From UHGV virus genome UHGV-0268820: DNA of 28,814 nt; one strand, 5' to 3'. The DNA is from a virus. Below the pieces are notes generated by a model. It had not been told where the DNA came from, searched no databases, and saw nothing but the letters and a program-made list of their open reading frames with translations. Of the stretch, positions 199 to 6,020 are shown one piece after another. Both the position numbers and the translations under genes were made by a program. How positions within the stretch are numbered: position 1 is the stretch's first letter; each line of letters begins with the position of its first letter.

Positions 199-221
199 GG
201 GAATTACTGGATCTATCAACA
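144..221 (-). ncRNA. oop: oop-like antisense RNA (about 77 nt) overlapping the cII 3' end
   Basis: On the - strand a 9-bp GC-rich hairpin (AAUCCUCGG/CCGGGGAUU, one G-U pair) is followed by a U6 run (plus-strand A-run about 145-150); a CATAAT -10 on the - strand (plus 228-233) sits about 77 nt upstream, matching the position and length of lambda oop/pO. Confidence 0.45.
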
Positions 222-230
222 GGAGTCATT

Positions 231-377
231 ATGACAAAACAACTCAGTCCTTACCAGGACAAAATTCACAAACACATACTACGTGATCGCTTCCTGTCCA
301 GCTTCAGGCAGCCTGGTCGATTCCGGGCTGAGTTGGAAAAAGTGAAGCTGATGCAGAAGGATAAAGGTCATGAGTAA
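231..377 (+). CDS. small basic hypothetical protein (48 aa) between cII and the O-like gene
   Basis: ATG at 231 preceded by AGGAG (221-225); [51 protein letters not shown] ends at TAA 375-377 and overlaps the next start (ATG 370) in a tcATGAgtaa coupling arrangement. Below the 60-aa cutoff of the ORF track. Confidence 0.4.
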
Positions 378-1230
378 TCTTGCAACCGTAACACATTTAA
401 GGCCTTCACAACGGCCTGTGGAGCGTCGTGTGGCAGAAGTTGAAGATGGTTATACCCGTCTTGCAAATGCCCTGTATGAAGAGCTTATCGGCGCAGATTT
501 AACGAAAAATCAGAGCAAGGTTGCCCACGCCATATGCCGTAAAACATACGGCTACGGTAAAAAGATGGATCGCATCTCTGATAGTCAGTTAGCTCAAATT
601 ACCAGGCTGCCAAGACAGAAGGTAAACAAGGCCAAGAATGAGCTTATCGCGATGAAGGTTATCCTTCGCGAAGGCCAGCAAATCGGGCCTAACAAGAACA
701 TCGAGGAATGGCAAATCGAAGGGTGTCACTACTCTGGTGATAATGTCACTGCATTGGTGACAAAAAGTGTCACCAAAACGGTGACAGCGCTGTCACCAAA
801 ACAGGGACACACAAAAGAAACTATTACAAAAGAAAAAAGAAATAATAAAAACACTATGTCCGAAAGTGTTCGGACGGAGTGTGAAAAATCACCTGACCGT
901 CACGAAGAAACCGACAAGGCATTCGAGGAAATATTCTGGTGTGCAGGCATGCGGAAGGCCGGGAAGAAAAACGCAGCTTCGGCATTCAGAACACAGTTCA
1001 GGGAATGGCGTAAAACTACCAGGGGTACGGCAAGCGAGTTTGCCACGATGCTGGCAGAAGACATCGCATGCAGGAATGGTAAGCAGTTCGGATTCGACAG
1101 GTTATTACCATCGAGCTACCTGAACGGTCAGCGCTGGAACGACGAAAAGCCAGAAACCATTCAACCACAATCCAAACCATCATCCGCAATCACCGTATCG
1201 AAAACTGGCTACGTGTTTTTCGACAGGTGA
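370..1230 (+). CDS. replication initiator, lambda O-like N-terminal origin-binding domain with divergent C-terminal half
   Basis: N-terminal 110 aa align with lambda O ([57 protein letters not shown]); iterons and an AT-rich tract lie inside the gene as in lambda; C-terminal part is unrelated to the lambda O P-interaction domain. Confidence 0.85.
744..858. other. putative origin of replication: 3 iterons (TGTCACC-N5-GGTGACA type) plus adjacent AT-rich tract, inside the O-like gene
   Basis: Inverted-repeat iterons at about 744-762, 768-786 and 791-810 with roughly 23-24 bp phasing, followed by AT-rich 811-858 (acaaaagaaactattacaaaagaaaaaagaaataataaaaacac), which is near-identical in character to the lambda ori AT-rich region. 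Confidence 0.6.
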
Positions 1231-1337
1231 ACCATGAAATCAAAAATCAAATCGCTACTGGTCGCTGGTTATAACCACGGCTGGTTAAGTATTTCGTTTG
1301 TCGATTTCTGGTTTAAAAATCTCAATCTGAGGGAATC

Positions 1338-3218
1338 ATGAGGCCAAGTGAACTTAGCGACCTGCTTTGGGCGCAGGTTGACAGGGTGGCTCCGCACCTG
1401 TTGCCAAACGGCAAGAAAGAGGGGCATGAGTGGGTTGCCGGTAACGTCAACGGTGACAAGGGAAACAGCCTTAAGGTCAACCTTAGCGGAAAGAAAAAAT
1501 GGGCTGATTTCGCTGAGGGAGACGGCGGTGACATGCTTGATTTGTGGATGGCATGTCGTGGAATTAACCTGCATCAGGCTATGCAGGAAGCGAAAGCATT
1601 TCTCGGTATCAAGGATGACGATCACCATTTCGATGCCAAACGTGAGAAGAAATTCTCCAGACCTGATCGCAAGAAAATCGCCCGCTACGTTACCAGAACA
1701 GAATCCCATCTTGAGTACCTGCAATCGCGTGGCATATCGCCAGAAGTCGTAAAGCGCTACGAGGTTGTCAGCGGCAAGGTGTGGAATGGAGAGCGGGAAC
1801 TGGATGCTCTGGTGATTCCGTACAAACGCGATGGTGAGTTGTTGCAGGTCAAGCGAATCAGCACTGAGCGCCCGGACGGGAAGAAAGTCATTATGGCAGA
1901 AGGTGATTGCGAACCTTGTCTGTTCGGATGGCAGGCTCTGGACGCTGGCGTGAGGGCGGTTGTACTTTGCGAAGGCGAAATTGATTGTATGAGCTATGCG
2001 CAATACGGCATCTCGGCGTTATCCGTGCCGTTTGGTGGCGGGAAAGGCGCTAAGCAGCAGTGGATTGAGTTTGAGTATCACAATCTCGACAGGTTTGAGG
2101 AAATATTCATCTCGATGGACGTTGATGATGTTGGTCGTGAAGCCGCAAGGGAAATCGCAAGCCGACTCGGTGAACATCGTTGCCGTCTTGTTACTCTGCC
2201 GTACAAAGACATCAACGAATGCCTGATGAACGGTGTTACCGAGGATGAAATCTGGCAGTACATCGGCACGGCATCCTACTTCGACCCTGAAGAACTCTAC
2301 AGCGCGCGAGAGTTTTACCAGGACACTATCAACGCTTTCTACGGCAAGCAGCAGTATCTGTTTAATCCACCGTGGGAATCTCTGGCAGATAAATTCCAGT
2401 TCCGTGAGGCAGAGTTGACGCTGGTCAATGGTGTGAACGGTCACGGAAAAACGGAGGTTGTCGGGCATATGGCACTTGAGGCAATGCGTCAGGGTGTGAA
2501 GACGTGCATCGCGTCACTTGAGCTGAAGCCTGGTATTCTCCTTAAGCGCCTTACCCGTCAGGCGACGTGCTGCAAGATGCCGCCAGTGCTGGAAATTGAC
2601 TCTGCATTTAAATTTTATGACGAAAGACTTTGGGTGTTTGGCCTGACCGGAACGGCGAAAGCCGACAGGCTGATCGAAATATTCGACTACGCTCGCCGCC
2701 GATACGGGATCCAGTTATTCATCATCGACAGCCTGATGAAATGCGGCATAGGTGACGATGACTATAACGGGCAGAAAGCATTTGTTGACTCGATTTGTGA
2801 CTTCAAAAACAAAACAAACTCCCACGTCATTCTCGTTACTCACTCCAGAAAAGGAGACAGCGAAGAAAAACCAACCGGGAAAATGGACGTAAAAGGCTCT
2901 GGAGCGATAACAGACCTGACAGACAACCTTTTCATCATCTGGCGTAACAAGGCTCGCGAGAGAGCGTTACAGAGAGTTCAGAGTGGTGAAAAGATGTCAG
3001 AGAAGGACGAACAGGTACTGGCGTCTCCGGCATCTGTTTTGATGCTTGAAAAACAACGTAACGGCGAAGGTTGGGAAGGTGGCGTCCCGTTGTTCCTTGA
3101 TGAGCAATCGCACCAGTTCCTGCAACTTGAATCAGGATCGCCATATAGCTACATCGCCAATATGCCGAAATCGGAATATGACGAGGCGTGGCGACAGGAA
3201 AACGTGACGGAGTATTAA
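1338..3218 (+). CDS. bifunctional DNA primase/helicase (TOPRIM primase domain plus DnaB/T7-gp4-like helicase domain)
   Basis: 626 aa; TOPRIM-like acidic motif VVLCEGEIDCMSY...SVPFGGG; Walker A GVNGHGKTEV and Walker B-like LFIIDSLMK in the C-terminal half; GAGGGA RBS 8 nt upstream of ATG 1338. Confidence 0.85.
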   Translation: MRPSELSDLLWAQVDRVAPHLLPNGKKEGHEWVAGNVNGDKGNSLKVNLSGKKKWADFAEGDGGDMLDLWMACRGINLHQAMQEAKAFLGIKDDDHHFDAKREKKFSRPDRKKIARYVTRTESHLEYLQSRGISPEVVKRYEVVSGKVWNGERELDALVIPYKRDGELLQVKRISTERPDGKKVIMAEGDCEPCLFGWQALDAGVRAVVLCEGEIDCMSYAQYGISALSVPFGGGKGAKQQWIEFEYHNLDRFEEIFISMDVDDVGREAAREIASRLGEHRCRLVTLPYKDINECLMNGVTEDEIWQYIGTASYFDPEELYSAREFYQDTINAFYGKQQYLFNPPWESLADKFQFREAELTLVNGVNGHGKTEVVGHMALEAMRQGVKTCIASLELKPGILLKRLTRQATCCKMPPVLEIDSAFKFYDERLWVFGLTGTAKADRLIEIFDYARRRYGIQLFIIDSLMKCGIGDDDYNGQKAFVDSICDFKNKTNSHVILVTHSRKGDSEEKPTGKMDVKGSGAITDLTDNLFIIWRNKARERALQRVQSGEKMSEKDEQVLASPASVLMLEKQRNGEGWEGGVPLFLDEQSHQFLQLESGSPYSYIANMPKSEYDEAWRQENVTEY

Positions 3219-3246
3219 ATGACCATCTACATCACTGAGCTAATAA

Positions 3247-3279
3247 CAGGCCTGCTGGTAATCGCAGGCCTTTTTATTT
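3247..3279 (+). terminator. Rho-independent terminator after the primase-helicase gene (tR2-like position ahead of the nin region)
   Basis: 8-bp stem AGGCCTGC/GCAGGCCT (3248-3255 / 3264-3271) with an 8-nt loop, followed by TTTTTATTT. Confidence 0.6.
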
Positions 3280-3295
3280 GGGGGAGAGGGAAGTC

Positions 3296-3712
3296 ATGAA
3301 AAAACTAACCTTTGAAATTCGATCTCCAGCACATCAGCAAAACGCTATTCACGCGGTGCAGCAAATTCTTCCAGACCCAACCAAACCAATCGTAGTAACC
3401 ATTCAGGAACGCAACCGCAGCATTCGGCAAAATGCACGCCTTCACGCGATGCTATCTGAAATAAGTAAGAAGGCCACATATCATGGAAAAGAAAGAAATA
3501 TTGAGTTTTGGAAGGGGTTATTCGTTTCTGGTTGGCAAATTGCAACCAACCAGCACCCTGAGATTATATCAGGGTTAGAAGGTGAGCTAATAAACATCAG
3601 AGAGAGTACGGCGACTCTATCTGTAAAAAAAATATCCGAAATAATGGACTACATAGAAGCATATTGTGCCATGAACTCAATTCATCTTAGCGAATGGAGG
3701 AATTATGATTGA
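3296..3712 (+). CDS. ninB: NinB recombination protein, mosaic: lambda-identical N-terminus, divergent AT-rich C-terminal two-thirds
   Basis: From ATG 3296 (RBS GGGAGAGGG) the first 42 aa, MKKLTFEIRSPAHQQNAIHAVQQILPDPTKPIVVTIQERNRS, match lambda NinB as I recall it; the remainder is only distantly NinB-like and markedly AT-rich. The track ORF begins at an upstream TTG (3278). Confidence 0.8.
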   Translation: MKKLTFEIRSPAHQQNAIHAVQQILPDPTKPIVVTIQERNRSIRQNARLHAMLSEISKKATYHGKERNIEFWKGLFVSGWQIATNQHPEIISGLEGELINIRESTATLSVKKISEIMDYIEAYCAMNSIHLSEWRNYD

Positions 3713-4307
3713 GGTTTGGGTAGATATCGAAGGGATTCCATTTTATCAGGTTAGCAATAAAGGAAATTTCAGGTCTATTACGAGGGAAGTTACAGTAACA
3801 TCAACCAGACAGAGGCCATATAAGAAAATAATTAATGGCACTAGCGTAAAACCATTCAAGTGCAAGTCGACAGGATATCTTCAAATAAAGGTATACGGTA
3901 AGAAATACAGCGCCCACAGGATAGTTGCGAAAGCATTCTGTACAGGGTTCTGTGATGGCTTGGTAGTTAATCACAAAAATGGGCAAAGAGATGACAATAG
4001 GGCTGAAAACCTTGAATGGGTATCACATTCTGAAAACTCAAAGCACGGATATAAACAAAATGGAAGAATACCTATATCGCTAGGTAAATTTAGCGGTGAT
4101 CATCCTGCCAGTAAAGCTGTTATTTCTACTGACATGAAAACTGGTGAGGAGGTTTATTATGAAGCAGCTATGGATGCTGTCAGAGAAGGATTTGATAGTT
4201 CGTCAATTAGTCGTTGCTGTAATGGCGAAAGCTCATATCACAAAGGAAGATTCTGGCGATTTGCAAATGAAACAATGAAAGCAAGATGGGGAGACAGGGC
4301 TGCATGA
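3705..4307 (+). CDS. HNH homing endonuclease (NUMOD4-like N-terminus, HNH_3 core, C-terminal DNA-binding region)
   Basis: N-terminus MIEVWVDIEGIPFYQVSNKGNFRSI (NUMOD4-like); HNH motif NHKNGQRDDNRAENLEWVSHSEN; AT-rich composition; last residues KARWGDRAA match the lambda NinB C-terminus; start overlaps the ninB stop (ATGATTGA) with a GGAGG RBS. Confidence 0.8.
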   Translation: MIEVWVDIEGIPFYQVSNKGNFRSITREVTVTSTRQRPYKKIINGTSVKPFKCKSTGYLQIKVYGKKYSAHRIVAKAFCTGFCDGLVVNHKNGQRDDNRAENLEWVSHSENSKHGYKQNGRIPISLGKFSGDHPASKAVISTDMKTGEEVYYEAAMDAVREGFDSSSISRCCNGESSYHKGRFWRFANETMKARWGDRAA

Positions 4308-5176
4308 TAAATGTCGTTAGTTTCTCAGGTGGCAGGACGTCAGCATATTTACTCTGGCTAATGGAGCAAAAGCGACAGGCAGGTGAAGACGTGTATTACG
4401 TTTTCATGGATACAGGTTGTGAACATCCAATGACATATCGGTTTGTCAGGGAAGTTGTGAAGTTCTGGGATATACCGCTCACCGTATTGCAGGTTGATAT
4501 CAACCCGGAGCTTGGACAGCCAAATGGTTATACGGTATGGGAACCAAAGGATATTCAGACGCGAATGCCTGTTCTGAAGCCATTTATCGATATGGTAAAG
4601 AAATATGGCACTCCATACGTCGGCGGCGCGTTCTGCACTGACAGATTAAAACTCGTTCCCTTCACCAAATACTGTGATGACCATTTCGGGCGAGGGAATT
4701 ACACCACGTGGATTGGCATCAGAGCTGATGAACCGAAGCGGCTAAAGCCAAAGCCTGGAATCAGATATCTTGCTGAACTGTCAGACTTTGAGAAGGAAGA
4801 TATCCTCGCATGGTGGAAGCAACAACCATTCGATTTGCAAATACCGGAACATCTCGGTAACTGCATATTCTGCATTAAAAAATCAACGCAAAAAATCGGA
4901 CTTGCCTGCAAAGATGAGGAGGGATTGCAGCGTGTTTTTAATGAGGTCATCACGGGATCCCATGTGCGTGACGGACATCGGGAAACGCCAAAGGAGATTA
5001 TGTACCGAGGAAGAATGTCGCTGGACGGTATCGCGAAAATGTATTCAGAAAATGATTATCAAGCCCTGTATCAGGACATGGTACGAGCTAAAAGATTCGA
5101 TACCGGCTCTTGTTCTGAGTCATGCGAAATATTTGGAGGGCAGCTTGATTTCGACTTCGGGAGGGAAGCTGCATGA
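4304..5176 (+). CDS. ninC: NinC, phosphoadenosine phosphosulfate reductase-family protein
   Basis: 290 aa from ATG 4304, overlapping the previous stop (gcATGAtaa); [17 protein letters not shown]... (PP-loop SGGxxS motif) matches lambda NinC as recalled. The track ORF starts 18 nt upstream at 4286. Confidence 0.8.
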
Positions 5177-5346: not shown

Positions 5347-5489
5347 TCTGCGAAAACTGCAAATACCTTCCAACGAAACGCACCAGAAATAAACCCAAGC
5401 CAATCCCAAAAGAATCTGACGTAAAAACCTTCAACTACACGGCTCACCTGTGGGATATCCGGTGGTTAAGACATCGTGCGAGGAAATGA
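5313..5489 (+). CDS. ninE: NinE-like small basic protein (58 aa, GTG start)
   Basis: GTG at 5313 with AAGGAGGA RBS (5302-5309); translation (M)[57 protein letters not shown] matches recalled lambda NinE; stop overlaps the next ATG (5486). Confidence 0.45.
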
Positions 5490-5851
5490 CAATGGATTAT
5501 TCACAGTTAAGTGATTTTGAAATTAACAAGCGAGTGGCAATTTGCTGTGGATTTGCTCCCGAAGATTGCGAAATCGCAAAGTTGGGAACATCAATCGTTG
5601 GTGTTGAGTGGGATGACGAAACTGGTTATGCAATAAAAACGGTTGATTACTGTAAAAGCCCATCAGACGCAGAGCCGATTATCGTAGAGAACAGAATTGG
5701 CATTATTCCAGCGCCAGAAAATGGATTATGGAAGGCAGCGCATAGAAAAGTTGGCAGTGATAGTACCCCATATCATATGACTCAAGATGAAAACCCACTC
5801 CGCGCCGCCATGATTGTCTTTCTCATGATGCAGGACGCCAATAATGCTTAG
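5486..5851 (+). CDS. hypothetical nin-region protein (121 aa)
   Basis: ATG 5486 overlaps the ninE stop (aATGAc); [34 protein letters not shown]...; no recognisable catalytic motif. The track ORF starts upstream at 5450. Confidence 0.6.
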
Positions 5852-6020
5852 CCCATCCCAATCCCTTCAATACCAGAAAGAAAGCGTCGAGCGGGCTTTA
5901 ACGTGCGCTAACTGCGGTCAAAAGCTGCATGTGCTGGAAGTTCACGTGTGTGAGCACTGCTGCGCAGAACTGATGAGCGATCCGAATAGCTCAATGTACG
6001 AGGAAGAAGACGATGAATGA
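5844..6020 (+). CDS. ninF: NinF-like small protein (58 aa)
   Basis: [58 protein letters not shown] matches recalled lambda NinF; start overlaps the previous gene's end and the stop overlaps the next start (ATGAATGA). Confidence 0.55.
   Translation: MLSPSQSLQYQKESVERALTCANCGQKLHVLEVHVCEHCCAELMSDPNSSMYEEEDDE

Follow-up and report, generated by a model that had tools for sequence, protein, structure and literature searches.

The stretch of DNA analysed here (the window, 28,814 nucleotides of the virus genome UHGV-0268820) carries near its left end a compact set of genes, in which a replication initiator containing a predicted origin within its own coding sequence is followed by a small conserved ORF and a large primase-helicase. 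The features recognised between positions 231 and 3218 are the following.

231..377, plus strand: DUF2740 ORF, 48 aa (Pfam DUF2740, E 1e-27)
370..1230, plus strand: replication initiator, 286 aa, two domains and a disordered linker (ORF, Pfam, BLASTP, AF2)
427..711, plus strand: lambda-O-type winged-helix origin-binding domain, initiator aa 20-114 (PF04492, TIGR01610)
724..809, no strand: four 19-bp palindromic iterons TGTCAC-N7-GTGACA, predicted initiator binding sites (pattern search)
about 810..860, no strand: AT-rich, A-strand-biased tract, predicted unwinding element (GC 17.5-30%)
851-864/869-882, no strand: inverted repeat bordering the AT-rich tract on its right (14-nt arms, 4-nt spacer, 86% complementary)
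895..1155, plus strand: C-terminal helical domain of the initiator, aa 176-262 (profile comparisons, AF2)
1156..1230, plus strand: C-terminal tail of the initiator, aa 263-286 (tails of matches compared)
1234..1341, plus strand: conserved 35-aa ORF of the ES18 gp60/epsilon34 gp51 family (phrog_21848, E 4e-26)
1338..3218, plus strand: bifunctional primase-helicase, 626 aa, of T7 gp4/Twinkle (SF4) type (Pfam, PHROG, structures, alignment)
1395..1622, plus strand: N-terminal region with homology to the zinc-binding domain of DnaG but no zinc ligands (TIGR01391, hhalign)
1956..2231, plus strand: TOPRIM catalytic core (E212-GEID, D261-x-D263, K290-D291)
2400..3119, plus strand: SF4 (DnaB/gp4-like) helicase domain (AAA_25/DnaB_C at aa 355-594)

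In the AF2 model of the initiator, a winged helix (aa 25-116) is connected through a disordered stretch (aa 118-166) to a helical bundle (aa 177-252, pLDDT >94). The first-pass annotation of this DNA had proposed that the DNA-binding domain of lambda O is kept at the N-terminus, and this is borne out by the profile searches: Phage_rep_O (PF04492) matches aa 20-114 with an E of 1.2e-37 and 128.8 bits, above its curated cut-off of 28.7, and the NCBIfam model phage_O_Nterm (TIGR01610) reaches 105.3 bits against a cut-off of 45.5. The first 157 residues are 49% identical to lambda O, with no BLASTP match beyond them. Queried with the full-length model, Foldseek matched the N-domain alone, and all its matches were winged helices (MarR-type regulators and the N-domain of DnaD).

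The intragenic origin announced in the same annotation is likewise found, the four iterons, the AT-rich tract and the inverted repeat all lying inside the initiator gene, with iterons and tract placed where the disordered linker is encoded. The iterons (724-742, 744-762, 768-786 and 791-809) are spaced by 20-24 bp, and their pattern has 7 matches in the whole window vs 0.95 expected, a number reached in 0 of 100 shuffles. They occupy the same place as the iterons of lambda, although the lambda sequence differs (ATCCCTC..GAGGGA). The adjoining tract, in which GC falls as low as 17.5%, is nearly identical to the AT-rich stretch of the lambda ori when aligned with lambda, epsilon34 and P22.

The C-terminal half of the initiator is a different matter. 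It carries the motif AFxxFWxAGMRKxxKxKA...QFGFDKLxPxxYLNGxRWxDE, and no Pfam model matched this helical domain. Its comparison with the C-domain of lambda O gave nothing by BLASTP and an hhalign probability of 1.4%, and the sets of PHROG families matched by the two do not overlap, which rules out even a remote homology; of the 318 positions of phrog_277, lambda O spans 1-317 and this protein only 1-182. Thus, the earlier claim that this half is unrelated to the P-binding domain stands, and the clear homology to that domain which would have contradicted it did not appear when sought. Lacking a homologue of the P-interaction domain (lambda O aa about 160-299), the protein is not a full-length lambda O orthologue. 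Homology with the C-half of P22 gp18 was also ruled out (hmmsearch E 0.76). The last residues (aa 263-286), modelled by AF2 as short strands with a pLDDT of 65-79, show conservation in the primase-helicase-linked subfamily only, and this tail is a candidate partner-specific peptide.

The primase-helicase had been described as the next gene, a description that holds for the downstream 626-aa TOPRIM/helicase fusion but overlooks the conserved 35-aa ORF at 1234-1341, the stop codon of which overlaps the start of the primase-helicase (ATGA). Both length and sequence of this small ORF are conserved, with a dN/dS of 0.14-0.28. It is missing in loci of Providencia, Xenorhabdus, Serratia and Symbiopectobacterium that keep initiator and primase-helicase; with four or five distant loci retaining the pair without it, a role for its product as an obligatory adaptor is weakened.

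The 626-aa protein matches phrog_239 ("DNA primase/helicase") with an E of 3e-171, structures of T7 gp4 (5ikn/6n7i) with an E of about 3e-23 over aa 192-539, and a Twinkle structure (8e2l) with an E of 6e-14. The domain searches that had been suggested gave Toprim_2 at aa 209-296 (E 3e-12, 47 bits vs a cut-off of 22), whereas DnaB_C scored 23.9 bits, under its cut-off of 27. When aligned to T7 gp4, all the TOPRIM and SF4 motifs are intact, so that the predicted fusion of a TOPRIM primase with a helicase is upheld and the objection that helicase motifs might be absent from the downstream protein falls. Helicase motifs H1, H1a, H2, H3 and H4 all align (Walker A G368-x-G370-K371-T, E395, D464, H502, K505 and D517/G520), and K518 occupies the position of the T7 arginine finger R522.

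The N-terminal part of this protein raises the question of whether it can prime. The NCBIfam dnaG model TIGR01391 matches aa 26-143 (E 8e-10), and hhalign gives a weak match to the zinc-binding domain of E. coli DnaG (E 9e-4, probability 23%), in which N38, D57 and E60 replace the ligands H43, C61 and C64; there are no CxxC pairs and a single Cys in aa 1-110, so a Cys4 zinc site is not present. It is therefore conceivable, if unlikely, that the protein acts as a helicase only, with a zinc-less primase part that is inactive or structural, and that primers come from host DnaG or from transcripts. The replacement of all four ligands of the DnaG/gp4-type zinc ribbon and the lack of any PDB match for aa 1-196 speak for this reading, for which metazoan Twinkle, where loss of the zinc ligands accompanies loss of priming, is a precedent. 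However, E212, D261, D263 and D291 of the TOPRIM core stay unchanged even in the alignment with T7 gp4, at about 25% identity; the zinc-less N-region is strongly conserved across homologues from Escherichia, Vibrio and Pseudomonas, which argues for a retained function; and no route is known by which a gp4-type helicase could recruit DnaG.

This arrangement of an O-type initiator and a primase-helicase is already known and in print as the ES18 type, and it is ordinary rather than new. The initiator, the 35-aa ORF and the primase-helicase are all present with ES18-type sequences, corresponding to gp59, gp60 and gp61 of ES18, and the same three genes stand in the same order in ES18, epsilon34, mEp043, Sf101, g341c and SEN22, of whose module the window holds another copy (annotated equivalents are mEp043_054/055 and epsilon34 gp50-52). 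Over 206-3421, DNA identity by megablast is 98.7% to mEp043 and 98.6% to Sf101, and the primase-helicase is 99.5% identical to its mEp043 counterpart. Sequenced model phages carrying the module include ES18, epsilon34, mEp043, Sf101 and the Stx phages 24B and Min27, and the cassette is found in 298 of 5,426 complete E. coli genomes. Genes 49-53 of epsilon34 have been identified as the counterpart of the ES18 replication region (PMC2629481), while the Eru scheme for the replication regions of Stx phages covers other modules and not the ES18-type cassette (PMC8044961). In the searchable literature, no experimental work on the ES18-type replication module was found.

Immediately 5' of the initiator, and overlapping its start by 8 nt, the DUF2740 ORF is included in the stretches that match mEp043, Sf101 and SEN22; in epsilon34 and Oslo its place is taken by another short ORF (gp49). 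The DUF2740 ORF accompanies the module, of which it is an uncertain member.

Comparison with other lambdoid replication modules, proposed in the first-pass annotation as a check, besides recovering the same cassette in phages of the ES18/epsilon34/mEp043 type, bears out the claim of a modular swap at the domain boundary. In epsilon34 gp50 the front is 91% identical to lambda O and the rear about 97% identical to this initiator, the crossover falling in the conserved AT-rich ori stretch. Megablast matches start at 797 (epsilon34, Oslo and g341c) or at 846 (APC_JM3.2 and phiKp_30). These junctions mark the AT-rich tract as the site of recombinational domain exchange. The same C-domain is joined to an unrelated HTH_36 N-domain in Stx phages and in one further locus (L092). 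In such natural chimeras C-domain and primase-helicase stay together, whatever the N-domain (lambda-type in epsilon34, mEp043-type here, or HTH_36), and among ES18-type members only the N-domain and the iteron type vary.

Co-inheritance of the pair is also seen in larger sets. In the IMG/VR loci with a similar initiator, the small ORF is present in 80/80 and the primase-helicase lies downstream in 79/80, the remaining locus ending about 600 bases past the small ORF (L087); in species-representative genomes, the primase-helicase is found in 20 of the 21 loci in which C-domain identity is at least 46%. In relatives, the primase-helicase gene is hit by inteins and homing endonucleases, as essential replication genes usually are, and this speaks for the mechanism proposed below.

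The C-domain itself is 95-100% identical across ES18, epsilon34, mEp043, Sf101, g341c and SEN22 (95.3% in ES18 gp59). Its family is a broad one without a name, numbering 367 representative clusters at 50% identity, and the core conserved in it is not partner-specific. Distant members have a DnaB-like helicase or a DnaC- or P-like loader as neighbour, so that at the family level the domain does not specifically mark primase-helicase modules and does so only within the subfamily of 46% identity or more; distant homologues of the primase-helicase, in turn, follow initiators without this C-domain. There is some chance, though a minor one, that the core provides a generic origin function (oligomerisation, handling of ssDNA or of the DUE, or binding of a host factor) without contacting the primase-helicase, and that the helicase loads itself onto the melted origin or is guided by the tail or the 35-aa protein. 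Against it, C-domains of at least 46% identity are almost perfectly associated with the primase-helicase, as would be expected for a co-evolving interface, and the small ORF is absent from loci that keep the pair, so its product is unlikely to be an obligatory adaptor. A broader suggestion, which we consider doubtful, is that the C-domain is a widespread "helicase-delivery" module, which phages pair freely with origin-binding domains of five or more kinds and with any of four non-homologous supplies of a replicative helicase (a gp4-type primase-helicase, a DnaB-type helicase, or a loader of DnaC type or of P type), and that the tail and/or the 35-aa protein would set the enterobacterial specificity for a zinc-less yet active primase-helicase.

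The mechanism that we propose would begin with the binding of the lambda-O-type winged helix to the four iterons inside its own gene, after which the adjoining AT-rich tract would melt. The C-part of the initiator, helical domain and subfamily-specific tail together, would then help to recruit the T7-gp4-like hexameric primase-helicase that the phage itself encodes, a step that the conserved 35-aa protein may also join. This enzyme would stand in for host DnaB, for its loader (P or DnaC) and probably for DnaG, and synthesis would be left to host DNA polymerase III, given that the module contains no DNA polymerase gene. Precedents exist in P22 gp12, which replaces DnaB, and in T7 gp4, which loads itself. 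As read from sequence, replication is likely to be independent of host DnaB. Physical recruitment of the primase-helicase by the initiator is something that we infer, since members of the C-domain family have other partners too, namely DnaB-like helicases and loaders resembling DnaC or P, and the enzyme may well prime actively and dispense with DnaC and DnaG. The non-specific core of the C-domain, the distant primase-helicases that follow initiators without this domain, the loss of all the primase zinc ligands and the lysine at the arginine finger were counted against the mechanism.

Origin firing could still depend on host DnaB recruited by the initiator, leaving the primase-helicase for a later or another task, for instance rolling-circle replication, restart or anti-defence, but this seems very improbable. 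C-domain relatives do occur beside loaders of host DnaB, and of 314 lambdoid phages, 34 have an O homologue but neither helicase nor loader (PMC12315714), so their initiator must recruit host DnaB. Here, however, the primase-helicase is a complete replicative-type SF4 helicase that sits in the exact P/gp12 slot, co-transcribed and co-inherited with the initiator, and homology searches of the whole window found no homologue of lambda P, of DnaC or of DnaB. The lack of a P-like loader for host DnaB, beside the initiator or elsewhere in the window, also excludes a lambda-type O/P module. Overall, the 231-3218 region probably serves a lambdoid prophage of the ES18/epsilon34/mEp043 type as its early-right replication cassette, working by the mechanism proposed above.

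In relation to known systems, the initiator resembles lambda O in its winged-helix N-domain, four iterons, AT-rich tract, palindrome within the gene and position after cII, and departs from lambda O/P in its non-homologous C-domain and in having, in place of P, a primase-helicase instead of a loader for host DnaB. As in the gene 18/gene 12 pair of P22, an O-like initiator whose gene contains the ori is followed by a phage-encoded replicative helicase and not by a loader (PMC8022706). Nevertheless, the DnaB-type helicase of P22, gp12, has no primase part, and the C-half of gp18 does not contain this C-domain; since gp12 has no match in the window at E 0.01 and DnaB_C stays below its cut-off, the module is not of the P22 type. 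With T7 gp4 and mitochondrial Twinkle, the 626-aa protein shares a single chain of TOPRIM, linker and RecA-type helicase, catalytic motifs that align, and an acidic C-terminus ending in an aromatic residue; it differs from them in its low identity (about 25%), its absent zinc ligands and its Lys at the arginine finger, and from T7 gp4 in its proposed use at an initiator-bound iteron origin with the host's rather than the phage's polymerase.

A working analogue is provided by the IncQ plasmid RSF1010, whose RepC/RepA/RepB' set combines an iteron-binding initiator with its own hexameric helicase and primase, uses host Pol III, and replicates independently of host DnaA, DnaB, DnaC and DnaG. In RSF1010, unlike here, helicase and primase are separate, the primase is not of TOPRIM type and the initiators show no sequence kinship. 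P4 alpha and N15 RepA are further cases of temperate elements with their own primase-helicase, although they fuse origin binding, primase and an SF3 helicase, whereas here a separate O-type protein accompanies an SF4 helicase.

As a discovery, the cassette carries little weight, being common and covered in comparative papers. Its value is that of a clean example of lambdoid initiators built from exchangeable halves joined at the origin. Moreover, Stx2a phages carry the module, and independence from DnaB, if real, could bear on the replication of toxin phages.

The region around 370-3218 is the early-right operon of a lambdoid phage, in which the 3′ end of a cII-like gene precedes both replication ORFs. 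These two ORFs have exactly the coordinates assigned to them in the first-pass annotation, which took the primase-helicase for the gene next to the initiator; this last point does not hold, since a small conserved ORF between them had been overlooked. The genes of the region are:

231-377, + strand: DUF2740 ORF, 48 aa, overlapping the initiator start by 8 nt
370-1230, + strand: initiator ORF, 286 aa
1234-1341, + strand: conserved 35-aa ORF, protein MKSKIKSLLVAGYNHGWLSISFVDFWFKNLNLRES, match to phrog_21848 (E 4e-26)
1338-3218, + strand: primase-helicase ORF, 626 aa
3278-3712: ninB, downstream of the primase-helicase
3705-4307, + strand: HNH/NUMOD4 homing endonuclease, 200 aa, with NUMOD4 and HNH_3 (and an I-HmuI NUMOD-like match)
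4286-5176: PAPS-reductase/NinC-like gene, downstream of the HNH/NUMOD4 gene

The DUF2740 family is labelled 'tail protein' in PHROGs and RefSeq, an implausible name for an ORF sited between cII and the replication genes. Phage mEp043 has a Dam methylase in place of the homing-endonuclease gene found here between ninB and the PAPS-reductase/NinC-like gene. Over the late region (5000-28814), identity is 98% to E. coli phages vB_EcoM-606R2, 689R2 and 611R5; to Salmonella phage SEN34, where a tail sheath is annotated, it is about 82%. Hence the early region is lambdoid and the structural module joined to it is of the myovirus type.

The lambda-O-type N-terminal domain attributed to the initiator is borne out by an end-to-end match of aa 20-114 to Pfam Phage_rep_O (E 1.2e-37; 128.8 bits, cut-off 28.7), by a match of the N-part to NCBIfam phage_O_Nterm, and by BLASTP, which gives 49% identity to lambda O over aa 1-157 and nothing beyond. 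The C-half (aa 157-286) has no BLASTP match to lambda O. The family phrog_277 covers lambda O end to end (1-317 of 318) and the window's initiator only over 1-182, and the two C-halves match different sets of PHROG families (33384, 270, 678, 9327 and 9474 for the initiator; 2357, 391, 2514, 9773 and 4880 for lambda O). An hhalign comparison of two profiles, one of 118 homologues of this C-domain and one of homologues of the lambda-O C-domain, gave a probability of 1.4%. All three tests agree that the C-half is unrelated to that of lambda O, so the clear homology to the P-interaction domain that would have contradicted the first-pass annotation is not seen; the domain is also absent from P22 gp18. 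In an AlphaFold2 model built from 81 homologues, a confident winged helix (aa 25-116) is followed by a disordered segment (aa 118-166) and a very confident helical bundle (aa 177-252, pLDDT 94-98). Foldseek searches with the full model retrieved MarR-type winged helices and the DnaD N-domain.

The predicted intragenic origin is also present inside the initiator gene, with these elements:

724-742, 744-762, 768-786 and 791-809: four palindromic 19-bp iterons, TGTCAC-N7-GTGACA
about 810-860: A-rich tract, GC down to 17.5%
851-882: 14-nt inverted repeat

Allowing up to two mismatches, the iteron pattern has seven matches in the window against 0.95 expected, a number reached in none of 100 shuffles, and the four good copies all fall within one 86-bp stretch. 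A site with two mismatches in the primase-helicase gene (1440-1458, +, GGTAACGTCAACGGTGACA) probably arose by chance, given an expectation of about one per window. The iterons and the AT-rich tract code for the disordered linker of the initiator. The annotated ori inside lambda gene O has the same layout. Its iterons differ in sequence, as is consistent with DNA-binding domains that are 49% identical.

The proposal of a modular swap at the domain boundary is supported by phage epsilon34, whose gp50 shares 91% identity with lambda O in aa 17-155 and about 97% with the window's initiator from about aa 160 on. At the DNA level, epsilon34 is lambda-like through the iterons and window-like thereafter, switching inside ACACAAAAGAxACTATTACAAAAGAAAAAAG, a stretch near-identical in lambda and the window and recognisable in P22. 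Megablast matches begin at window position 797 for epsilon34, g341c and Oslo, and at 846 for APC_JM3.2 and phiKp_30. Initiators of the Stx-phage type carry the same C-domain (88-97% identity) on an unrelated HTH_36 N-domain, with a linker that also holds repeats (3 x 24 bp). The conserved AT-rich origin segment thus serves as a recombination joint between the half giving origin specificity and the partner half.

The downstream protein is, as had been claimed, a fusion of a TOPRIM primase and a helicase, with Pfam Toprim_2 at aa 209-296, AAA_25/DnaB_C at aa 355-594 and a match to 'DNA primase/helicase' in PHROGs (E 3e-171). A sequence search of the PDB retrieved human Twinkle as well as T7 gp4 (5ikn, 6n7i, 1q57; E about 1e-23, aa 192-539). 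When the protein is aligned to T7 gp4 and three distant homologues (from Escherichia phage Fraca and from one phage each of Vibrio and Pseudomonas), the invariant columns comprise E212, D261, D263 and D291 in TOPRIM, and G368/G370/K371 (Walker A), E395, D464, H502, K505 and D517/G520 in the helicase; the lack of helicase motifs that would have contradicted the first-pass annotation is thus not seen either. Lys518 (codon 2889-2891) aligns with the arginine finger of T7 gp4, R522; this residue is Lys in the Escherichia and Vibrio homologues and Arg in that of Pseudomonas. The N-region shows homology to the zinc-binding domain of DnaG (TIGR01391, aa 26-143, E 8e-10), with the zinc ligands lost: N38, D57 and E60 align to DnaG H43, C61 and C64, and aa 1-110 contain a single cysteine. 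No ORF for a lambda P, P-like, DnaC-like or DnaB-type protein was found in any frame of the window.

The C-terminus of the primase-helicase (3170-3215, ...EYDEAWRQENVTEY) is an acidic tail with an aromatic last residue, recalling the ...DWSNDTDF tail with which T7 gp4 binds T7 DNA polymerase. As a phage polymerase is absent here, any partner of this tail would be a host protein.

Among relatives, the 'P' of Min27 (locus L004, 2250-4832) and its equivalent in locus L049 (5469-8375) contain an intein (Hint and LAGLIDADG) just past Walker A, at about aa 372-379; such intein-bearing products, from Min27-type Stx2 phages and some prophages, reach 860-968 aa. In four loci (L019, at 5469-5963, L030, L042 and L058) a free-standing 164-aa HNH-type homing-endonuclease gene separates the 35-aa ORF from the primase-helicase. 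Both kinds of insertion are typical of essential replication genes. The Min27 gene is also annotated as split, into 'P' and 'ORF31 putative DNA primase'. The C-half of the Min27 'O' CDS (L004 1364-2032) is read in the wrong frame, its tail being the window's +1-frame ORF 866-1123, and the true C-domain is coded at L004 1858-2139; the discrepancy reflects a sequencing error or else a frameshift in the record.

The stop of the 35-aa ORF overlaps the primase-helicase start (ATGA), and the ORF is the counterpart of epsilon34 gp51 and ES18 gp60. It is present in all 80 IMG/VR loci selected because their whole initiator resembles this one (50-100% identity), its product keeping its length and a core LLIAGYNHGxLS..FV..WF.K..LR; compared with diverged copies, its dN/dS is 0.14-0.28. 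The ORF is absent from loci of Providencia, Xenorhabdus, Serratia and Symbiopectobacterium in which the initiator is followed directly by the primase-helicase, so the 35-aa protein is accessory and not obligatory.

The primase-helicase is co-inherited with the initiator, being visible in 79 of these 80 loci; in L087 it is not seen because the sequence stops about 600 bases past the small ORF. The C-domain itself belongs to a broad family, with 367 representative clusters at E 0.001 or better in an exhaustive HMMER search. Its conserved core (aa ~176-262; AFxxFWxAGMRKxxKxKA...QFGFDKLHPTTYLNGxRWxDE) is covered by no model in Pfam or NCBIfam. The N-terminal partners in 81 members include HTH_36 (14), Phage_rep_O (11), DUF1376 (7), DnaD_N (6), Lin1244_N (4) and others. 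Its neighbours were surveyed in 63 loci from species-representative genomes, split by C-domain identity:

Neighbours of the C-domain gene
At least 46% identical: primase-helicase, 20 of 21 loci
More distant: DnaB-type helicase, 8 loci and 5 repeats in one genome
More distant: DnaC-type loader, 6 loci
More distant: Vibrio P-like protein, 5 loci
More distant: lambda-P-like loader, 3 loci
More distant: gp4-like protein, 3 loci
More distant: no recognisable neighbour, the remaining loci, about a dozen

This variety is also seen among annotated phages, the C-domain accompanying a primase-helicase in Fraca and CharmingMan, P-like proteins in PVA1 and D65, and a DnaC-like loader in Skulduggery. Conversely, the distant primase-helicase homologues of the Vibrio and Pseudomonas phages are preceded by initiators without the C-domain. 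Taken as a whole, the family is thus partner-agnostic, and only the enterobacterial subfamily, which has its own tail (...ITVSK(T/N)G(Y/L)VF(F/Y)), tracks the primase-helicase.

An uncultured Roseovarius MAG carries five near-identical copies of a locus (L142-L146) on one chromosome, each with a DnaB-like helicase gene upstream, not downstream, of an initiator that has this C-domain; the copies may represent a multicopy element or be GTA-like. The insect endosymbiont Arsenophonus has two prophage remnants (L114 4998-6789; L115 5000-6851) with a primase-helicase gene split into five or six pieces and an initiator C-domain that is still recognisable.

By analogy with lambda O/P, P22 18/12 and T7 gp4, the initiator would most likely bind its own iterons, the AT-rich tract would open, the phage's own ring helicase-primase would be brought to the bubble or self-load there, and host Pol III would replicate the DNA. 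The analysis establishes the parts list, the lack of a loader and the co-inheritance. That the C-half recruits the helicase, that replication does without DnaB, DnaC and DnaG, and that the primase is active are points that we infer with caution, mainly because the C-domain core is generic and the zinc ligands are missing.

Window positions 206-3421 are 98.7% identical to phage mEp043, 98.6% to Sf101 and about 88% to Salmonella phages SEN22, epsilon34 and g341c, and the 370-3218 region occurs in 298 of 5,426 complete E. coli genomes, where RefSeq annotates a 'replication protein' and a 'toprim domain-containing protein'. In the epsilon34 genome paper, genes 49-53 were identified as the ES18 replication region, gp50 as the likely origin-binding protein from its lambda O homology, and gp51 as a putative helicase (PMC2629481). 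The searchable literature yielded no biochemical or genetic study of this module. In sum, the hybrid organisation is confirmed as an observation, and the sequence evidence supports its interpretation. The module is already known and common; what novelty is left concerns side issues, namely a C-domain family that has no name, the 35-aa gene and a primase devoid of zinc ligands.
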